Below are positions 1,488-44,821 of a stretch of 64,000 nucleotides of DNA, one piece after another. The notes beneath the pieces were generated by a model. The model saw only the letters and a list, made by a program, of their open reading frames with translations, searched no databases and was not told the DNA's origin. Position numbers and translations under genes: made by a program. Numbering within the stretch: the first letter of the stretch is position 1; each line of letters starts with the position of its first letter. This DNA comes from Candidatus Omnitrophota bacterium. Its GTDB lineage: Bacteria; Omnitrophota; Gorgyraeia; Gygaellales; Profunditerraquicolaceae. The stretch lies in the NCBI GenBank assembly GCA_041651035.1, contig JBAZKC010000001.1, positions 323,244 to 387,243 on the forward strand, written 5' to 3'.

Positions 1488-1976
1488 TTAAAACTTATAG
1501 TTGAGTTTGCGCAAGAATTCCTTCCGCCAGGCTATATCCGCGTCCGTCTCAATACCCTGGGGCTTGGCGCCATCGATTACCCCCAATATACCCCTGGCGC
1601 CGTCCTGCGCTTGGGCGATAATCACCTGTACAGGATTAGCGGAGGCGCAATATATCGCGCAGACTTCGGGGATGTTTTTTATGGCGTTCAACACATTAAT
1701 AGGATAGGCATTCTTCATCAGGATAATAAAGCTGTGCCCCGCCCCTATTTCAAGGGCATTCTCAGAAGCTATCTTCTTTAATTCCGGGTCATTGCCCTCG
1801 CATCTTATTTTACAGGCTCCGGAAGACTCTACAAAACTAAGCGCGAATTTTATACCCGGAACGCTATTGACCAAGGCTTCGTGCAAATCCTCAACGGTTT
1901 TAATAAAATGGCTCTGCCCCAATATGATATTTACATCATCGGGCTTGCTGATCTTGAATAGTTTCAACTCTAACAT
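1488..1976 (-). CDS. Adenosine-specific kinase family protein (COG1839/PF04008-like)
   Basis: MLELKLFKISKPDDVNIILGQSHFIKTVEDLHEALVNSVPGIKF... matches the adenosine-specific kinase family. The start was moved to the internal ATG at 1976, which has a GGAG SD. The ORF-track N-terminal extension (MTDHYTSRSSELRECCPCGQGEA) is the translated leader element. Confidence 0.55.
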   Translation of the reverse strand: MLELKLFKISKPDDVNIILGQSHFIKTVEDLHEALVNSVPGIKFALSFVESSGACKIRCEGNDPELKKIASENALEIGAGHSFIILMKNAYPINVLNAIKNIPEVCAIYCASANPVQVIIAQAQDGARGILGVIDGAKPQGIETDADIAWRKEFLRKLNYKF

Positions 1977-1986
1977 AGCTTCTCCT

Positions 1987-2033
1987 TGCCCACAAGGGCA
2001 ACACTCGCGCAATTCCGATGAGCGCGAGGTGTA
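1987..2033 (-). promoter_or_regulatory. Conserved two-hairpin 5' leader element, copy A. On the mRNA strand: CUCGCGC-ucaucggaauu-GCGCGAG, then UGCCC-uugu-GGGCA abutting the SD.
   Basis: About 47 nt, near-identical to 41486-41532 (5 mismatches). It lies in the 5' UTR directly upstream of the SD and AUG of gene 1488-1976. Confidence 0.5.
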
Positions 2034-2072
2034 GTGGTCAGTCACGCAGGCCTGCCCGCCTGCAGGCAGGCT

Positions 2073-6249: not shown

Positions 6250-8487
6250 TTAAGCCTTTTTAAATGCCGTTAATTCCGTGATTATATTACCTGCCCAGCG
6301 GTAAATATTGTTTTCGGTTATCACCTTGCGCATGTTTTCCATGCGCCTCTGCTTCTCTTCTTTAGGCATCTGGATTGCCAGATTTATACTATCAGCAAAA
6401 TCTTCAATAGAATAAGGATTAATTAGAATAGCATCGCTGAGTTCACGCGCGGCCCCGGTAAACTGGCTTAAGATCAAACACCCCGATAAATCATCTTTCT
6501 CTGCCACATACTCTTTAGCCACCAGATTCATCCCATCATGCAGCGAACTAACAATACAAATATCACCCAGCTTATAATAAGGCTGAATATCGTCTTGCGA
6601 GAAATATTTCTTAAGATAAATTATTGGTTTCCAGTTCCCGTCTCTATATTTCCAGTTTATTTTCTCAACCAATTCATCAATTTCTCCTATTAAATCATGA
6701 TAACGCTTAATATGCGTGCGGCTCGGAGCGGCTAATTGAATAAAAACAAAATTCTTTTTATACGCGGGGTATTTATCCAGAAACCTATCTATCGCTAATA
6801 TTCTTTCAACTATGCCTTTAGTATAATCAATCCTGTCTACACCCATAGCAACAATCTTATTCTCAAGCTCAAATTCTTTCTTCAGCCTTTCCATCTGCCT
6901 TACCAGATTAACCTTAAGCGAACCGCCGCCTATGCGCGCGTTAATACTTATCGGGAAAGCCCTTATAAACGTCTCTTTCCCCGAACGAACAACACTGAAT
7001 CTTTCAGTGTCCACGCGTGACTCAAGCAGGCGGTTGGCGGTATCAAGAAAATTGTTGCAATGATTCTGGACATGGAAACCGATCAAATCACATCCCAGCA
7101 TTCCCTCCAGAATTTCGTTTTGATAAGGGCAAATCATAAAAGCCTCGGGCGTAGGCCAGGGTATGTGCCAAAATAAGGCTACTTTTGCATCCGGGCGTTT
7201 ATCTTTTATCATTTTTGGCAGAAGAGTAAAATGATAATCCTGCACAAATATAAACGGGCTGCTAGCCGGCAACTCTTCCAAAACACTATCAGCAAACTTC
7301 TGGTTTACTTCTTTATACATGCGCCAGTCAGATTCTCTGAAGACCGGACGTGTATGTGTGTTATGGCATAAGGGCCATAACCCTTCATTAGAAAAACCAT
7401 AATAATACCCTTGCTCCTCCTCTTTAGTAAGCCAAACTCTCTTAAGAATATAGCGGTTATCCTCAGGCGGCACCCCAAGCTTGTCTTTAGAATTGACGAA
7501 TTTCTTGTCGGAATTACCGCTTCCATGAGCAATCCAGGTCCCGCCGCAAGCAGAAAGTATGGGATGTATCGCGGTAACAACCCCGCTTGCCGGCCTTATA
7601 CACACTGCCTTACCTAAACTATCATCAAAAACATGCATATAAGGCTCTCTGTTAGAAACCACGAATAACGAATTATCTCCCAGCTTTGCGTGGATAAGAT
7701 CTTTAAGCTTGGCTTCAGTCCAAAGACCTTCTTTTTGCATCCGGGCATGCGCTTCATCTGATATGGTCCTGCGAGCTACCCTTATGCTTAAAGCAACCTG
7801 CTCAACTTCACTGATAAGTTTCCCAAATTCGCCTTTTTCTGCAAACGGGCGTAATTTGTCAGTTTCTCCTCTCTGAAAATGCGTAAACCACTGAGTCAAT
7901 CTGCGTACAGGGATGATAAAAATCTGCCTCTGGATCAATAAGGCAGTTAATACTATTAATAAAATAAGCGCTATGGAAGTAACGCTTATTTTTCTCCATA
8001 ATTCAGTTAAAGTAGCAAACATATAAGAAGTATCATAAATTACCTCTACCATGCCTAATACACTCTCATCATCATTTAAAACAGGCAAAATGTAACTATA
8101 CACGGAATATTCTTTAAATTTCTCCAAAACCCCGCGCGGATTCTTTGAAGACAGAATATCCTTAAGATATGGCCTTTCTCTATGTTTAAAATCAGAAAAT
8201 CGTTCAGTAATAGCTAATATTTGGCCGTCCTTATCGTAAATTACGCAACCCTGCAGCCTTTCTCTTTTCTGGAAACTATCAACTAAACGGTTAGCTTGTT
8301 TTAAATCATTGTTGATAAGGATGTACTTGGCGGATAACTCCAAACTCTCATCCACGGACCTGGCCTTCCTTTTTAAATCATCCATAAGCTTTTCTTCCGT
8401 GAAACGGGCCTGCATAATACCCGATATAGTAAATCCAAGCGCGACTAAGATTAATATAGGCAAAATAAACAGAAGTATTCTTTTCAT
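6250..8487 (-). CDS. otsA: Trehalose-6-phosphate synthase OtsA (GT20) fused to an N-terminal TM1 / periplasmic sensor / TM2 / HAMP module
   Basis: Residues ~1-250 hold two TM helices (ILLFILPILILVALGFTI and ISVTSIALILLIVLTALLI), a ~140-aa intervening domain and a HAMP-like segment (IPVRRLTQWFTHFQRGE...EFGKLISEVEQV). The GT20 core follows, with LFVVSNREP, FVQDYHFTLLP and ALFWHIPWP. Confidence 0.75.
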   Translation of the reverse strand: MKRILLFILPILILVALGFTISGIMQARFTEEKLMDDLKRKARSVDESLELSAKYILINNDLKQANRLVDSFQKRERLQGCVIYDKDGQILAITERFSDFKHRERPYLKDILSSKNPRGVLEKFKEYSVYSYILPVLNDDESVLGMVEVIYDTSYMFATLTELWRKISVTSIALILLIVLTALLIQRQIFIIPVRRLTQWFTHFQRGETDKLRPFAEKGEFGKLISEVEQVALSIRVARRTISDEAHARMQKEGLWTEAKLKDLIHAKLGDNSLFVVSNREPYMHVFDDSLGKAVCIRPASGVVTAIHPILSACGGTWIAHGSGNSDKKFVNSKDKLGVPPEDNRYILKRVWLTKEEEQGYYYGFSNEGLWPLCHNTHTRPVFRESDWRMYKEVNQKFADSVLEELPASSPFIFVQDYHFTLLPKMIKDKRPDAKVALFWHIPWPTPEAFMICPYQNEILEGMLGCDLIGFHVQNHCNNFLDTANRLLESRVDTERFSVVRSGKETFIRAFPISINARIGGGSLKVNLVRQMERLKKEFELENKIVAMGVDRIDYTKGIVERILAIDRFLDKYPAYKKNFVFIQLAAPSRTHIKRYHDLIGEIDELVEKINWKYRDGNWKPIIYLKKYFSQDDIQPYYKLGDICIVSSLHDGMNLVAKEYVAEKDDLSGCLILSQFTGAARELSDAILINPYSIEDFADSINLAIQMPKEEKQRRMENMRKVITENNIYRWAGNIITELTAFKKA

Positions 8488-8502: not shown

Positions 8503-8546
8503 AAAAACAAAAACCGCCCCCTGATTATTAAAATCAGATGGCGGCC
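8503..8546 (-). promoter_or_regulatory. Terminator-like hairpin plus U-tract inside the otsA 5' leader. Possible attenuator or riboswitch expression platform.
   Basis: Minus-strand RNA reads GGCCGCCAUCUGAU-uuuaaua-AUCAGGGGGCGG followed by UUUUUGUUUUU. This sits immediately 5' of the G-rich SD (AGGGGGG) and the AUG at 8487. There is no minus-strand gene upstream that it could terminate. Confidence 0.4.
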
Positions 8547-8644
8547 CGACCATCCAAAATCGCCTCCAGAGACATATATTTATCTCCAGACCACTTGATT
8601 TCTTATTTATGTTTATGCGCTTATTATACATCTTCCAGGGATTA

Positions 8645-30806: not shown

Positions 30807-30882
30807 TGGTGGAGCTGGAGGGAGTTGAACCCTCGACCCCTTGCATGCCATGCAAGTGCTCTCCCAACTGAGCTACAGCCCC
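30807..30882 (-). tRNA. tRNA-Ala (anticodon GGC)
   Basis: Manual fold: acceptor GGGGCUG/CAGCUCC carrying the G3:U70 Ala identity pair. D arm GCUCAGUUGGGAGAGC. Anticodon stem CUUGC/GCAAG with loop AUGGCAU. T arm GAGGG-UUCAACU-CCCUC. CCA is encoded. 76 nt. Confidence 0.85.
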
Positions 30883-30946: not shown

Positions 30947-31032
30947 GCCGGAGTGGCGGAATGGCAGACGCGGCAGCCTCAAAAGCTGTTGAGGGCAACC
31001 TCATGGGGGTTCAAGTCCCTTCTCCGGCACCA
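30947..31032 (+). tRNA. tRNA-Leu (anticodon CAA), class II with a long variable arm
   Basis: Acceptor GCCGGAG/CUCCGGC. Anticodon stem GCAGC/GCUGU with loop CUCAAAA (U33, CAA, A37). Variable arm UGAGG-gcaa-CCUCA. T loop UUCAAGU. CCA is encoded. 86 nt. Confidence 0.8.
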
Positions 31033-40862: not shown

Positions 40863-41471
40863 TTATTTCTTTACCAATTCCGCGTCGTCAAGATAAAGCG
40901 TGCCTTTTGCCGGCGGCAACGGTTCAAACTGGTAACTCTTTATCGGGAAATCTATCTGTCCATTCTTTTCCGCGGTCTGCGGCTGCCAGTCGTCGCGCGC
41001 GACAAATTCCTTGAACGGGCAGACTACCTGTTTCCAGCCTTTAAAATTATCTTCAAAAATATAGCGCGATATCTCACCGCCGTTATCTTTGATGTCAAAA
41101 GCGATCTTTGCCTTATTATCGCTGCCGTACATATAAAAAGCTATGGCATTGTATTTATTCCAGCTCACATCTCCTGCCTTCACCAGCCAGCCGGAATTCT
41201 TAGCGTCTAAATCATAACCTCTGGCTACCCAGATATATCCTCCGGGAACAGCATCATAAGTTACCTTAAGCGACTGTTTGCCTCCGTGCGCGATATCTGT
41301 AGCCGCGCTGACTTCCACGTTTGAACCATTACCAGCCCCGAAATCCACCGTTCCTTCGGGACCGCCGGTAATCATGATCTCAAAACCGTCAATTAATAAT
41401 ATCTCATCCGCGGCAAGGCTCAAACCTGCCAAACTTAAAACCATAACCAGGATCAAAACAGCTGTTTTCAT
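40863..41471 (-). CDS. Secreted beta-sandwich protein, carbohydrate-binding-module-like (CBM11/CIA30-like)
   Basis: Start moved to the internal ATG (41471) with a strong SD (AGGAGGAAGC). Signal peptide MKTAVLILVMVLSLAGLSLAADE. The ORF-track N-terminal extension is the translated leader element. Confidence 0.45.
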   Translation of the reverse strand: MKTAVLILVMVLSLAGLSLAADEILLIDGFEIMITGGPEGTVDFGAGNGSNVEVSAATDIAHGGKQSLKVTYDAVPGGYIWVARGYDLDAKNSGWLVKAGDVSWNKYNAIAFYMYGSDNKAKIAFDIKDNGGEISRYIFEDNFKGWKQVVCPFKEFVARDDWQPQTAEKNGQIDFPIKSYQFEPLPPAKGTLYLDDAELVKK

Positions 41472-41485
41472 AATGCTTCCTCCTT

Positions 41486-41532
41486 TGCCCACAAGGGCAC
41501 ACCCGCGCAATTCCGATAAGCGCGGGGTGTAA
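41486..41532 (-). promoter_or_regulatory. Conserved two-hairpin 5' leader element, copy B
   Basis: mRNA strand reads CCGCGC-uuaucggaauu-GCGCGG then UGCCC-uugu-GGGCA-AAGGAGG. One stem base pair covaries with copy A (U:A to C:G). Confidence 0.5.
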
Positions 41533-41572
41533 GTCCACAGGGACACGCCCGCCACTCCTTTATGGCGGGGCG

Positions 41573-42349
41573 TTATTTACCCGGGTGCGCTTGTTTAAAC
41601 GGTATTACCGGCGCGGTCCAGGGTGTCTGCTGGTTAATAATAGCGATCTCCAACGGACAAACATTTGCCGGCACAGTCAAAGCGAACTTCACCGCGTTTT
41701 CAATTGCCTCGGTTGTCATCAGGCGCGAGGTGTCTGCGGTAATTTCCTTTAATTTGCCGGTTAAGTCAGTATCTGTTACGCCCGGCAGCAAAGAGGTGAT
41801 CTTAATGCCGTGGTCGCGGATCTCCCAAAAGAGCCCTTTTAAGAAAGCACGCAAGCCCACTTTTAAAGAACTATAAACAAGGAAATTACGCGGCAGGGGA
41901 TCGCATAGAGTTGAACCGGAAACCATATTAATGATCGAGCCGCTTTTATTTTTTATCATATCGTTAATTACCAGGCGGATCAACCTGACATAACCTAAGT
42001 AATTCGTATGCGCCAATCTTTCAAAATCCTCAATGGGCTGCTCGTGGAACGGATACTGGCTGGAAACCCCGGCGTTATTGATGAGGATATCTATTTTGCC
42101 GAATTTCGCTTTTGTTTTATTAACCAGGTTTTCCAGGTCCTCTAATTTCGCCACGTCGCAGACCAAAGGCAGCACTTCTACTTTATATTTTTTGGCGATC
42201 TCGCCCGCGGTTTCCTCTAACGGGCCCTGCTGGCGCGCGGCAATGGCAAGATTAATGCCTAAACTCGCGCAGGTGCAGGCAATAGCCTTGCCGATACCGC
42301 GGCTTGCTCCGGTTATAATAGCGGTCTTCCCTTTCAATTCCGTGCTCAT
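41573..42349 (-). CDS. SDR-family ketoreductase (FabG/ActIII-like)
   Basis: TGASRGIGKAIA Rossmann motif, NNAG, and catalytic S...YSSLK. 258 aa. Last gene of the PKS-like operon. Confidence 0.75.
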   Translation of the reverse strand: MSTELKGKTAIITGASRGIGKAIACTCASLGINLAIAARQQGPLEETAGEIAKKYKVEVLPLVCDVAKLEDLENLVNKTKAKFGKIDILINNAGVSSQYPFHEQPIEDFERLAHTNYLGYVRLIRLVINDMIKNKSGSIINMVSGSTLCDPLPRNFLVYSSLKVGLRAFLKGLFWEIRDHGIKITSLLPGVTDTDLTGKLKEITADTSRLMTTEAIENAVKFALTVPANVCPLEIAIINQQTPWTAPVIPFKQAHPGK

Positions 42350-42359
42350 ATTAAGCCTC

Positions 42360-43484
42360 CTAAACTTTTGCGATCAATAACTTCCTATCCAGTAATAATA
42401 ATACTACCAAGCTAAAACCAAAACAAACAAAACTCAAAACAAAACTTTTCTGTATCAACACTCCTCCGATAGCCACACCCAGGCCTCCGGAGACAAAACG
42501 TATGCCGCTGTTTAAACTCGCTGCCTCATGCAGAAAATCCCCGGGCAGGTCAGTAAGCATAGTAGAAAGCCCGGCGTGGTTAAAAGTCCAACCCAGGCCC
42601 CAGATAATCATTAACAGCGCGATAAACAAAACCGGCAGTTTAAATGCCAGGCAAAATATGCTTAAGGCCATCATCAGGATCCCTAAATTTATCGTCTTTA
42701 CCCTGCCCAGCGTATCTGCCAAAATACCCCCGAATGTTTCACCGAAAACTCCGCTTAGGCTGGTCAATGTGATCAAAGAACTGATCAGGAACTGGGAAAA
42801 TCCTAAATCAGATGAAAAATATACTGCCAGCCACTGCTGCACGCCGTGATAGATCAAGCTGATAAAGAATATATAGGTAAAAACCAGAAAGAAATCCCTG
42901 TTTTTAAAGGCGCGCAAATAATTTATTTTAAAACCCACAGCATCTTTCTTAAAGCTCGGCAGGTAAAAATAGATAATAACGCATAATACAAACCCTAACA
43001 CCGCCGGAATAAAGAAAATCAGCCGCCAGTGGACAATCCCGCTTAAGGCCAGGCCTAAAAGAGACGCGATAAACGTCGCTCCAAAGAAAATCCCGACGAA
43101 TTTGCCCCGGGATTTGTCTTCCACGTGCCTGGCAATTAAAATAATCCCCAAAGGAATTACTGAAGCCCCGAATAACCCCATCATGAACCGGGCAAAAAAT
43201 AAGGAATTTATATTTTGCGCCAATGCCGCCAGCAGGTTAGCCAAAGAAAACAAACTAAGGCAGGTTAATTCTACCTTTTTGGCGTCAATCAAACGCACCA
43301 GCGGCCCGTAGACCAAGGCAGCTATGCCGTAAGGCAGCATATACAGCCAGATGATCCTGCCGGCAAATAATTGAGAAAGAGCGAAATCCCTGGCTATGGA
43401 AGGCACCAGTGCTGCAACTGCGGCGACATTAAAAGAAAGCAGCGCGCCTTCTAAACACAAGATAATAAAAGTAGACTTCTTCAC
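42360..43484 (-). CDS. MFS transporter (putative exporter of the cluster product)
   Basis: 374 aa, 12 TM helices. Overlaps the SRPBCC stop by 4 nt. Confidence 0.55.
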   Translation of the reverse strand: MKKSTFIILCLEGALLSFNVAAVAALVPSIARDFALSQLFAGRIIWLYMLPYGIAALVYGPLVRLIDAKKVELTCLSLFSLANLLAALAQNINSLFFARFMMGLFGASVIPLGIILIARHVEDKSRGKFVGIFFGATFIASLLGLALSGIVHWRLIFFIPAVLGFVLCVIIYFYLPSFKKDAVGFKINYLRAFKNRDFFLVFTYIFFISLIYHGVQQWLAVYFSSDLGFSQFLISSLITLTSLSGVFGETFGGILADTLGRVKTINLGILMMALSIFCLAFKLPVLFIALLMIIWGLGWTFNHAGLSTMLTDLPGDFLHEAASLNSGIRFVSGGLGVAIGGVLIQKSFVLSFVCFGFSLVVLLLLDRKLLIAKV

Positions 43485-43966
43485 TTCTTAGTTGCTTCTC
43501 TTTCAATAATTTCTTTAAAGATCTTCAGGTTGTGCCGTGAGCCTTCATTAATAAAGCCCTCGACCTGCTGGTCGGTAAATTTAGCTTTTTCATCCATTTC
43601 AAAATGCTGGATCCAAGCCATCTCCACTGGACAGAAGTCCGTGGTTTGGCATCCTTTAGCCAAAGCCATGCCTGCGGGCTTAGACGTATAAAGCCAGACG
43701 ATCTTCATATATTTAAAAGGAAACAACGGCTCCTGCCTTTGGGCATAAGTAAAATATTTGTCTTTAAAAAGCAGCCGCCAGGAAACCCAGGACTTCCCTT
43801 CTTCGTCAGTAAGGCGGAAGGTGATTTTATTGTCTTTCTTCTCCACGACTTCGGCTTTCTGGTATTCACTGCCAAATAATTCTGTCCAGCGCGGGATATC
43901 GTTAGAAATATCAAAAACCAAATCATACGGGGCGTTAATAATTATTGAATTGCACGTGTGTCCCAT
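43481..43966 (-). CDS. SRPBCC-superfamily protein (polyketide aromatase/cyclase-dehydrase type, Polyketide_cyc2-like)
   Basis: Start at the internal ATG (43966) with SD AAGGAGG. IINAPYDLVFDISNDIPRWTELF is the typical START/Bet v1-like N-terminus. ~160 aa. Confidence 0.55.
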   Translation of the reverse strand: MGHTCNSIIINAPYDLVFDISNDIPRWTELFGSEYQKAEVVEKKDNKITFRLTDEEGKSWVSWRLLFKDKYFTYAQRQEPLFPFKYMKIVWLYTSKPAGMALAKGCQTTDFCPVEMAWIQHFEMDEKAKFTDQQVEGFINEGSRHNLKIFKEIIEREATKK

Positions 43967-44020
43967 ATATAACCTCCTTGCGCAGAAAGCGCACACCGAC
44001 TCCTCCTTTAGAGTCGGGTG

Positions 44021-44821
44021 CTATTCTAATATCGCCACTACGCGCGACCAGGCAGCTCCGGTATTCTTTATCTTTACCGGAAAACAAACCACCTTAAAAC
44101 CAAAAGCAGGCAGTTCCTCTAAATGCGCCAGGCGCTCAATATGTATAAATTCCCTTTTCCTGCCGTAAAAATGCGCCGGATATAACGCGCCCGTTTTTTT
44201 GTTATCCAGAAATTCTTTCAGCATGAATTTATAAGGCCGGTCAATACCCATGGTGTCTGTGCCGAATATTTTTACACCCCTGTCCAGCAAATAATCTATC
44301 GCCGAAATATCTATCCCCGGGTAATCTGTAAAATAACGGGGGCTTCCATAAAATTTATCGGCGCCGGTATGCAAAAGCACGATATCCAGGTTTTTAAGGG
44401 AATAATTTATCTTTTTTAGCGCGCTTTCTAAGTCCTGGGCGGTTATGGTTTCGTTTGGCGTCTTATGCGTAAAGTCAAGATGCACGCCACTAGACATGCA
44501 CCAATCTAATGGGATTTCTTCCGCGGTCTTTGACGGCCTGCCTTCTGATAATGAACCGTAATGAAAGGAGTAATCTAAGTGTGTGCCGACATGAACCGGC
44601 GAATGGACTATTTCTAAAGACAGGAATTCCTGGCCAGGGAGGTCTTCTTTCCGGAGGATACGCTTTCCCAGGATATATTTTATCCTGCCTAAGAAAGTCT
44701 TACCCATAATTACGCGGTTAAACTTTTCCACGCCCTGCTTATGAGACACTCTCTGGATATTTACAGGGTGCACCTCAAAAGCCTTTTCATCAATAGGCAG
44801 GCTTAAGTCAACTATCTTCAT
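44021..44821 (-). CDS. Cyclase-family protein (PF04199; kynurenine formamidase/polyketide cyclase-like)
   Basis: HxGTHxDxPxH motif as HSPVHVGTHLDYSFH. 266 aa. Confidence 0.65.
   Translation of the reverse strand: MKIVDLSLPIDEKAFEVHPVNIQRVSHKQGVEKFNRVIMGKTFLGRIKYILGKRILRKEDLPGQEFLSLEIVHSPVHVGTHLDYSFHYGSLSEGRPSKTAEEIPLDWCMSSGVHLDFTHKTPNETITAQDLESALKKINYSLKNLDIVLLHTGADKFYGSPRYFTDYPGIDISAIDYLLDRGVKIFGTDTMGIDRPYKFMLKEFLDNKKTGALYPAHFYGRKREFIHIERLAHLEELPAFGFKVVCFPVKIKNTGAAWSRVVAILE

Follow-up and report, generated by a model that had tools for sequence, protein, structure and literature searches.

A two-hairpin repeat family set between stop codons and ribosome-binding sites in Omnitrophota genomes

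Introduction

Repetitive extragenic palindromic sequences (REP) and their bacterial interspersed mosaic elements (BIME), REP doublets forming hairpins (REPIN) and the palindromic elements of the IS200/IS605 kind are multi-copy, extragenic repeats with an extrahelical base that are co-transcribed, form arrays, expand within lineages and have clean boundaries. STAB-SD sequences and intercistronic stem-loops raise the output of a single cistron through mRNA protection or docking of the 30S subunit. For mycobacterial interspersed repetitive units (MIRUs), mobility has been proposed, with insertion around translation starts in a way that does not harm downstream expression (PMC12548453). Here we describe a family of small structured repeats first seen in a 64,000-nt stretch of contig JBAZKC010000001.1 of a Candidatus Omnitrophota bacterium (hereafter the window), where near-identical leaders precede an adenosine-kinase-family gene (adk) and an unrelated gene for a secreted CBM_11-like protein. 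Each unit consists of two hairpins (H1 and H2) and typically abuts the Shine-Dalgarno sequence (SD) of the gene that follows. Because Omnitrophota are uncultured, little is known about control of their gene expression, an almost unstudied subject to which the element offers a concrete and very common sequence handle.

Results

Two near-identical leaders on the minus strand of the window fold into adjacent hairpins. Copy 1 runs from 2032 to 1987 and copy 2 from 41530 to 41487, each followed by an SD and an ATG (1976 and 41471, respectively). The shared sequence is ACACC-NCGCGC-UNAUCGGAAUU-GCGCGN-GUGU followed by a small GCCC-UUGU-GGGC hairpin and the SD, which lies 3' of H2 and is unpaired in the predicted folds of the window copies. 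The core pattern CGCGCTNATCGGAATTGCGCG has two exact matches in the window and none in 100 shuffles, and a repeat search of the window groups both copies as one repeat family. Folding energies are -23.4 kcal/mol for copy 1 and -24.7 kcal/mol for copy 2 (z = -2.3), with two hairpins each, as the preliminary description of this DNA had claimed. That description was also right about the 11-nt loop of H1 and about a stem pair that is U:A in one copy and C:G in the other (alignment column 6/28); its 6-7-bp stem has to be revised to a 10-bp stem made of ACAC, a bulged C and 6 bp. The product of the CBM_11 gene carries a signal peptide.

The two leaders are members of an extensive family of small structured repeats, confined almost entirely to Omnitrophota. 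We scanned a collection of species-representative genomes with the pattern ACACC-N6-TNATCGGAATT-N6-GTGT, which leaves the six inner stem pairs free, and obtained 57 matches in 56 genome stretches, or 59 matches with the two window copies. A match was counted as genuine if its free N6 arms were complementary at 5 or more of 6 positions, which about 3% of matches are expected to achieve by chance. By this measure 57 of the 59 are genuine (55 from the genome collection and two from the window), and the remaining two, in a Desulfobacteraceae record and a Bacteroidetes record, are chance matches. The 55 genuine genome copies, the further copies that the preliminary description had proposed to look for, are spread over 39 genomes, nearly all labelled Candidatus Omnitrophota or Omnitrophica; the carriers include the complete genome of Velamenicoccus archaeovorus, and one genome holds six copies. 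A covariance model built from related sequences in two rounds (R1, later R2) and run on the window with filters off scored copy 1 at 76.7 bits and copy 2 at 63.6 bits and recovered two diverged copies. The same model found nothing in 80 metagenome loci around PF04008 genes (600 kb), which serve as a specificity control, and viral contigs contained no pattern matches. The proposed check against Rfam 15 gave no match on the element, either in a gathering-threshold scan of the whole window or in a scan of 1900-2200 at E ≤ 10. No description of the element was found in the literature searched on Omnitrophota genomes, on Velamenicoccus archaeovorus RNA and in a 224-motif survey. It represents an undescribed variant among the dispersed intergenic hairpin repeats, unusual in keeping a fixed register with the ribosome-binding site.

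Pairing is maintained across the family while the stem sequences change. Standard pairs account for 98.9% of pair cells over 62 distinct sequences, and 13 of the 15 pairs show double-sided changes; none of 500 shuffles reaches the observed values, and sliding the partner column leaves 21-54% of cells paired. RNAalifold independently predicts the identical two hairpins. H2, which was absent from the search pattern, pairs in every copy despite a highly variable sequence, with stem types as different as UGUGU/ACACA, UGUCU/AGACA, GCCC/GGGC, UUCAU/AUGAA and UCCGC/GCGGA. Since the sense strand shows 18 G.U pairs against three A.C pairs, it is the strand that folds. The H1 loop (U-N-A-U-C-G-G-A-A-U-U; UNAUCGGAAUU) is nearly invariant, as are the bulged C and the ACAC/GUGU base, and loop positions G17, G18 and A19 are conserved in 61, 62 and 58 of the 62 copies. 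Copies recovered by the covariance model alone have the bases GCAC/GUGY, GUAC/GUAU, AUAC/GUAU or GGAC/GUCU and looser loops that keep U.A...GGAAUU. The claim of a conserved RNA-type structure with genuine covariation is thus borne out by stems that vary and stay complementary, strand-asymmetric wobble and a loop that is the most conserved part. Folds with loop-loop kissing or SD sequestration were considered and rejected: H2 loops of the CUUCU type could pair with GGAA or AGGAG, whereas the commoner NNGU loops cannot.

Units are 46-52 nt long and often occur as dimers of about 86 nt, tandem arrays or nested composites. Both window loci follow the dimeric form, the repeated block of about 86 nt being two units with the more diverged one 5' of the canonical one. 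The unit of about 47 nt in the preliminary description is real, but the repeated block is longer and the window holds two further diverged copies (Table 1). One of these, a variant unit directly 5' of copy 2 (41573 to 41532), scores 15.8-16.6 bits (E = 0.05-0.07) and begins on the final base of the TAA stop codon of an SDR gene. The other, referred to as the third copy (44021 to 43973), precedes a Polyketide_cyc/SRPBCC gene with its ATG at 43966, and its first base is the G of the TAG stop codon of the upstream cyclase gene. Both keep the H1 architecture on different stems and share an identical 8-nt loop, UAAAGGAG (44003-44010 and 41555-41562, minus strand). This loop is a perfect SD-like sequence displayed in a hairpin loop and occurs in this genome only, among all DNA examined.

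Table 1. Coordinates of the units, their hairpins and adjoining start regions in the window, and of nested composites at other loci.
Feature	Position	Strand	Basis
Copy 1 H1: ACAC-C-UCGCGC (UCAUCGGAAUU) GCGCGA-GUGU; 10 bp, bulged C, 11-nt loop	2001..2032	-	sequence, fold, covariance model E = 5e-16
Copy 1 H2: UGCCC-UUGU-GGGCA, 3' end abuts SD	1987..2000	-	sequence, fold, covariance model
Copy 1 SD AGGAGA (1986..1981), spacer AGCU, ATG (1976..1974), PF04008 adenosine-kinase-family gene	1974..1986	-	
5' half of the adk-junction block of about 86 nt: G+C hairpin GCCUGCCUGCAGGCGGGCAGGC (2071..2050) and degenerate H2-like hairpin GUGACUGACCAC	2033..2072	-	fold, alignment against four empty orthologous sites
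Copy 2 H1: ACAC-C-CCGCGC (UUAUCGGAAUU) GCGCGG-GUGU	41499..41530	-	sequence, fold, covariance model E = 6e-13
Copy 2 H2: GCCC-UUGU-GGGC	41487..41498	-	sequence, fold, covariance model
Copy 2 SD AAAGGAGG, spacer AAGCAUU, ATG (41471..41469), secreted CBM_11-like gene	41469..41486	-	
Variant unit directly 5' of copy 2: ACGC-C-CCGCCA (UAAAGGAG) UGGCGG-GCGU, GUCC-CUGU-GGAC, UU	41531..41573	-	covariance model
Third copy H1: G-CAC-C-CGACUC (UAAAGGAG) GAGUCG-GUG; H2: UGCGC-UUUCU-GCGCA; AGGAGG	43973..44021	-	32.7 bits, E = 6e-6
Composite form	L004 5058-5143; L013 6671-6960; L039 6345-6430; L023 2079-2244; L035 2746-2900		

Terminator-like predictions at 2050-2071 and 41548-41569 lie on the plus strand only, antisense to the genes, and the sense strand has no U-tract. 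An intrinsic terminator was rejected, the combination of G+C hairpin and U-run being absent from the transcribed strand and the T-run following the hairpin only on the plus strand. The G+C palindrome GCCTGCCCGCCTGCAGGCAGGC (2050-2071) lies just past the stop codon of the PIG-L gene, and a near-identical palindrome, CCTGCCTGCCGGCAGGCAGG, occurs in Velamenicoccus archaeovorus (locus L023, 2154-2173), where it interrupts the 3' arm of an H1. This palindrome may be another small hairpin that is mobile; with one copy in the window and one in L023, it was not accepted as a repeat family in its own right.

The element occupies a fixed position ahead of translation starts. In 43 of the 57 genuine copies an A-AGGAGG SD follows H2 directly and the open reading frame (ORF) starts 22-33 nt past H1 (median 26). 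Many units begin at the upstream stop codon or a few nucleotides beyond it, and in about half of cases a same-strand upstream gene ends 0-25 nt 5' of the unit. Fifty distinct upstream regions gave no positional signal for a promoter at a fixed distance, apart from weak A/T at -2 and G at -1, and the idea of a stabiliser hairpin at the 5' end of the transcript was rejected. With no such signal and an upstream gene ending so close, the element is typically intercistronic. As to GC skew, 41 of 44 sense copies lie on a G-rich strand and five of seven inverted copies on a C-rich one, but in these 8-kb loci the skew is confounded by coding-strand bias and does not discriminate between orientation by replication and by transcription. 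A coupled mini-ORF of the MIRU kind was rejected, no reading frame being consistent across copies: window copies 1 and 3 place the unit in different frames, and one frame has UAA or UGA in the loop in 44 of 62 copies.

The downstream genes are functionally unrelated, and most encode abundant proteins. The 43 distinct downstream ORFs fall into Pfam classes that include chaperones, ribosomal proteins, glycolysis, secretion, hydrogenase and regulators, among others. They encode GroEL, DnaK, IlvC, L7/L12, L20, L25, L31, S8 and AtpE (ATP synthase subunit c); phosphofructokinase (PFK), transaldolase, CysK, PII, ThiS, the NiFe hydrogenase large subunit and desulfoferrodoxin; and a secretin, a pseudopilin, PstS-like and LolA-like proteins, ExbB, a histone-fold protein and others. 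Within the window three or four of about 60 genes bear the element by a rough ORF call. The histone-fold protein (121 aa; PF00808, E = 9e-6; L025 2854-3216) is a candidate bacterial histone-like protein in an Omnitrophota metagenome-assembled genome.

Comparison of orthologous junctions reveals gain and loss of whole units. The adk junction is empty in L060 and L140-L147, where PIG-L, adk and LpxL are syntenic and the adk proteins are 78-87% identical; these junctions measure 10-14 nt and consist of a stop codon, AGGGGGAG or AGGGAGG, and the ATG. The window has about 86 extra nucleotides at this place, between TAA-AG and GAGAAGCU-AUG. The CBM junction is likewise empty in L148, L149, L151 and L152 (85, 84, 78 and 66% identity), where it reads TAA-AAAGGAGG-ATG, and in the window 86 extra nucleotides, a variant and a canonical unit, sit exactly between TAA and AAAGGAGG. 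The same junction holds a single diverged unit, AUAC-C-CCGCGC...GCGCGG-GUAU, in L150 (81% identity) and one unit in L004 with an inner stem fully covaried to CAAAUC/GAUUUG. Other junctions of the CBM-gene operon are filled elsewhere, between the KS and radical-SAM genes in L148 and between the radical-SAM and ACP genes in L150 and L151; the junction between the MFS and SDR genes is filled in L004 and empty in the window. The orthologue of the third-copy site (44021) in L004 (3442-3493) carries a copy with the canonical loop. At this junction of the cyclase and SRPBCC genes, occupied in the window and in L004, L149 (2569-2640) instead has two direct palindromes, GGGACTGTCCC, about 40 nt apart. 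The preliminary description had named two outcomes that would count against it, and they diverge: the orthologous leaders show no covariation, whereas further copies are many.

Tandem arrays reach four units (L013), and in nested composites a whole unit lies within the loop of another H1, between UAAU.. and ..AAUU (L004, L013, L021, L023, L035, L039). Composites of about 100 nt, in which the outer H1 loop holds a complete inner unit (GYACC...H2'), recur in several genomes; they precede dnaK, pfk and an SDR gene, and one lies at a gene-less locus conserved in three species. Inverted copies still adjoin the SD of a gene on the opposite strand (L008, L059 and the L023 group). An ORF-less unit in L059 (5900-5990, minus strand) has AAUAAAAAA and then a bidirectional intrinsic terminator on its 3' side, and might give rise to a small RNA of its own. 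Taken on the opposite strand, this unit is an inverted copy that directly adjoins the next gene's SD, AAGGAAAGG. Identical 46-nt units precede different genes within one genome. Orthologous copies are better conserved than the adjoining coding sequence, with 45 of 46 positions against 79% at the IlvC gene and 43 of 46 against 75% at an array locus.

The element leads to over-extended gene calls, as the preliminary description had noted: mechanically called ORFs run to GTG codons at 2045 and 41555. ORF calls at 1488-2045, 40863-41555 and 43481-43996 (minus strand) all cross an element that, at each of these three loci, has no stop in the frame of the downstream gene, and they are therefore over-extended at their N-termini, as is at least one deposited gene call. 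This call, P0001, is 185 aa long, compared with 161-162 aa for most of 120 listed homologues of the PF04008 protein, which supports the ATG at 1976 as the true start. As the over-extension is systematic, the element should be masked or modelled in these genomes.

Other features of the window include a match to the nhaA-I riboswitch at 8536-8593 (minus strand; RF03057, 41.2 bits, gathering score 37). The gene 3' of it (6250-8355, minus strand) encodes a trehalose-6-phosphate synthase of family GT20 whose N-terminal part gives a weak Cache-like match. For a motif responsive to Na+/Li+ such a partner is unusual, although a link through osmoprotection is plausible. Two divergent tRNA genes, at 30810-30882 (minus strand) and 30947-31029 (plus strand), lie 64 nt apart.

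Discussion

The family, its structure, its placement and its gain and loss are directly observed. The reading that we favour, at an about even chance on the sequence evidence, is that of an intercistronic cassette, mobile or duplicating and co-transcribed, that keeps translation of the downstream gene intact and may even raise it. Since units lie exactly between the stop codon of one gene and the SD of the next, usually on the sense strand, the element would be part of the operon mRNA. In this RNA, H1 would form a stable 10-bp hairpin with a bulged C, an ACAC/GUGU base and a conserved GGA-containing loop, and H2 a short hairpin free of sequence constraint that would stack directly on a single-stranded AAGGAGG. 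The presence or absence of units at orthologous junctions, the occupation of differing operon junctions and the tandem, nested and inverted copies suggest behaviour as mobile or duplicating DNA, and each insertion leaves the downstream gene with a strong, structurally insulated ribosome-binding site.

Beyond this we infer transcription, a trans-acting factor, an effect on translation or stability and a mechanism of spread. H1 may be the recognition site of the putative factor, which could be a mobilising protein, an RNA-binding protein or the 30S subunit. Candidates are an enzyme acting on single-stranded hairpins, a loop-specific RNA-binding protein (using a CsrA-like pair of GGA motifs) and, in view of the SD-like variant loops, the 30S subunit itself. 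The H1-H2 pair would uncouple the downstream start from upstream sequence and may protect the downstream mRNA segment, which would explain the retention of copies ahead of genes for abundant proteins. Copies may be retained because they raise the output of cistrons that require it (GroEL, L7/L12, AtpE, ACP), or may be found there simply because strong SDs are preferred targets. In a bolder form, which we consider unlikely, the element would be a self-spreading ribosome-binding-site cassette: a mobile RNA module supplying a strong and insulated SD, in which H1 would dock a dedicated factor or the 30S subunit. Selection would keep it before cistrons whose output has to exceed that of their operon neighbours (GroEL, L7/L12, AtpE, ACP), and the gene-less arrays would act as decoys for the same factor.

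Several points weigh against the favoured reading. A simple preference for strong AAGGAGG sites, of no use to the host, could account for the enrichment before abundant proteins, and the conservation of orthologous copies could result from homogenisation between copies and not from selection at each locus. Part of the invariance of ACACC, the loop and GTGT reflects ascertainment, these positions having been set in the scan pattern. There is no consistent target-site duplication: AG lies 5' of the unit in about 40% of copies, and AG or AAG is found on both flanks at window copies 1 and 3 and in L010. Low-powered tblastn searches with CsrA, IS200 TnpA and RAYT over 1.19 Mb of sequence gave no matches, the IS200 TnpA and E. 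coli RAYT queries being approximate sequences.

Among the alternatives, the one that survives best, possible but doubtful, is a purely selfish DNA repeat of the REP/REPIN type or an IS200/IS605-derived palindrome of the kind of palindrome-associated or miniature inverted-repeat transposable elements (PATE/MITE), with an incidental and neutral RNA fold. The hairpins would then exist for a single-strand-specific transposase, and insertion would be directed to the stop-SD junction or to an SD-like G^GA site. Filled and empty sites that are clean and lack obvious duplication, occupation of differing junctions of one operon across genomes, tandem arrays such as the four copies in L013, and inverted and orphan copies all fit such an origin. 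So do identical 46-nt units before different genes of one genome, yet H2 sequences that differ widely within a single genome and always pair are unexpected for recent transposition products. Nesting in the H1 loop occurs at UAAUCG^GAAUU, which resembles AAG^GAGG, and an imperfect palindrome with an extrahelical base is typical of IS200/IS605 and REP ends; the GT[AG]G head of REPs and the inverted-pair arrangement of REPINs, however, are absent. The sense orientation and exact abutment on the SD in 75% of copies, and the conservation of orthologous copies beyond that of neighbouring coding sequence, also speak against purely selfish DNA, as does the lack of a Y1 transposase in the tblastn search of 1.19 Mb, with its low power.

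Less probable, and rather improbable overall, is a regulon-type site for a global RNA-binding protein of the CsrA/Rsm style. Such a protein would bridge two GGA motifs, one in the H1 loop and one about 30 nt further downstream in the SD, placing many abundant proteins under joint translational control, with gene-less arrays serving as decoy RNAs. The near-invariant loop GGA (61, 62 and 58 of 62 distinct copies), its roughly constant spacing from another GGA in the SD and a loop and stem base conserved over 39 genomes would suit this role, as would the multi-unit arrays without ORFs (L059 and a locus shared by L014, L021 and L023), one of which ends at an intrinsic terminator. The variant loops UAAAGGAG point the same way, but the canonical loop is UCGGA and not an A(N)GGA core, and the stem is far longer and more elaborate than in known CsrA sites. 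Rapid gain and loss at orthologous genes would be unusual for a regulon, close relatives, whose syntenic adk locus is free of copies over about 20 kb, apparently do without the element there, and csrA was not found by the low-powered tblastn search of 1.19 Mb.

A riboswitch or ligand-sensing leader, in which H1 or H1 and H2 together would bind adenosine, a nucleotide or another small molecule, is very improbable and close to refuted. A conserved RNA fold and loop located in a 5' leader would be compatible with it, and a genuine nhaA-I riboswitch lies elsewhere in the window. The unrelated gene set and the SD outside the structure argue against a riboswitch, and the gene-specific leader or adenosine sensor of the preliminary description has to be given up: at least 40 functionally unrelated genes, 43 distinct ORFs without a common pathway, lie downstream, and the adk orthologues of syntenic relatives (78-87% amino-acid identity) have leaders of 10-14 nt completely without the element. 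There is no expression platform (no terminator and no consistent SD-sequestering fold), genomes hold many copies, some tandem or nested, and Rfam gave no match even at E = 10. We thus infer that the element is not a metabolite sensor. The other alternative in that description, a palindromic DNA operator or promoter element bound by a transcription factor, has next to no likelihood in spite of an inverted repeat ACACC...GGTGT near gene starts: a double-stranded operator is excluded by stems that change with complementarity kept, by wobble pairs biased to the sense strand and by a near-invariant loop and stem base whose centre is not palindromic, and the element lies between co-transcribed genes, in intergenic spaces of 0-20 nt without a promoter-like signal.

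The favoured cassette and its selfish alternative carry different implications. Should the element influence translation or mRNA stability, it would represent a post-transcriptional device of phylum-wide reach and a ready-made natural insulator part; in the bolder form, operon stoichiometry would be tuned by it across a whole uncultured phylum. If it is merely selfish, it would survive by inserting between stop codon and SD without breaking the downstream gene, extending the MIRU idea beyond mycobacteria.

Compared with known systems, the element shares single traits with several. Pneumococcal BOX and Neisseria Correia elements are likewise modular, co-transcribed intergenic repeats with RNA structure and the ability to alter neighbouring expression, but they are larger, have terminal inverted repeats (Correia) or boxA-B-C modules and keep no fixed register with an SD. 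STAB-SD of Bacillus thuringiensis cryIIIA and the Rhodobacter puf hairpins place a hairpin or SD-like sequence upstream of a start site, and the variant loops UAAAGGAG are perfect SD-like sequences too; these are single-locus features, in contrast to a dispersed repeat family with a conserved loop. Targets of CsrA/RsmE and the decoys CsrB/RsmZ resemble the element in combining a loop GGA with another in the SD, tens of nucleotides apart, and in forming ORF-less arrays. CsrA sites combine a loop GGA with an SD GGA 10-63 nt away, and here the SD GGA follows about 30 nt downstream; relative to the A(N)GGA core, the canonical loop has UCGGA and the variant loops AAGGA or AUGGA. The much longer, bulged H1 stem, the loop consensus UNAUCGGAAUU and the insertion and deletion dynamics set the element apart.

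REP/REPIN features are only partly present. REPs are multi-copy extragenic imperfect palindromes of 20-40 nt, comparable to the 32-nt H1 with its 10 bp and bulged C, and both are co-transcribed in operons, occur in arrays, expand in particular lineages and have clean insertion boundaries. The head of the element, however, is ACAC, GCAC or GUAC and not GT[AG]G, its units are direct or nested instead of inverted pairs, its loop and not its stem is most conserved, and it sits directly 5' of the SD, whereas REPs lie mostly 3' of genes. MIRUs are short (about 46-100 nt), sense-oriented intercistronic repeats of variable tandem copy number, a description that applies equally to the Omnitrophota element. 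MIRUs are proposed to act through a small ORF coupled to the downstream start by a -4 overlap, whereas the Omnitrophota element has no consistent frame and instead has an intact SD, a covarying two-hairpin fold and a conserved loop; it belongs to another phylum and has no sequence similarity to MIRUs. In behaviour, MIRUs are nevertheless its closest precedent.

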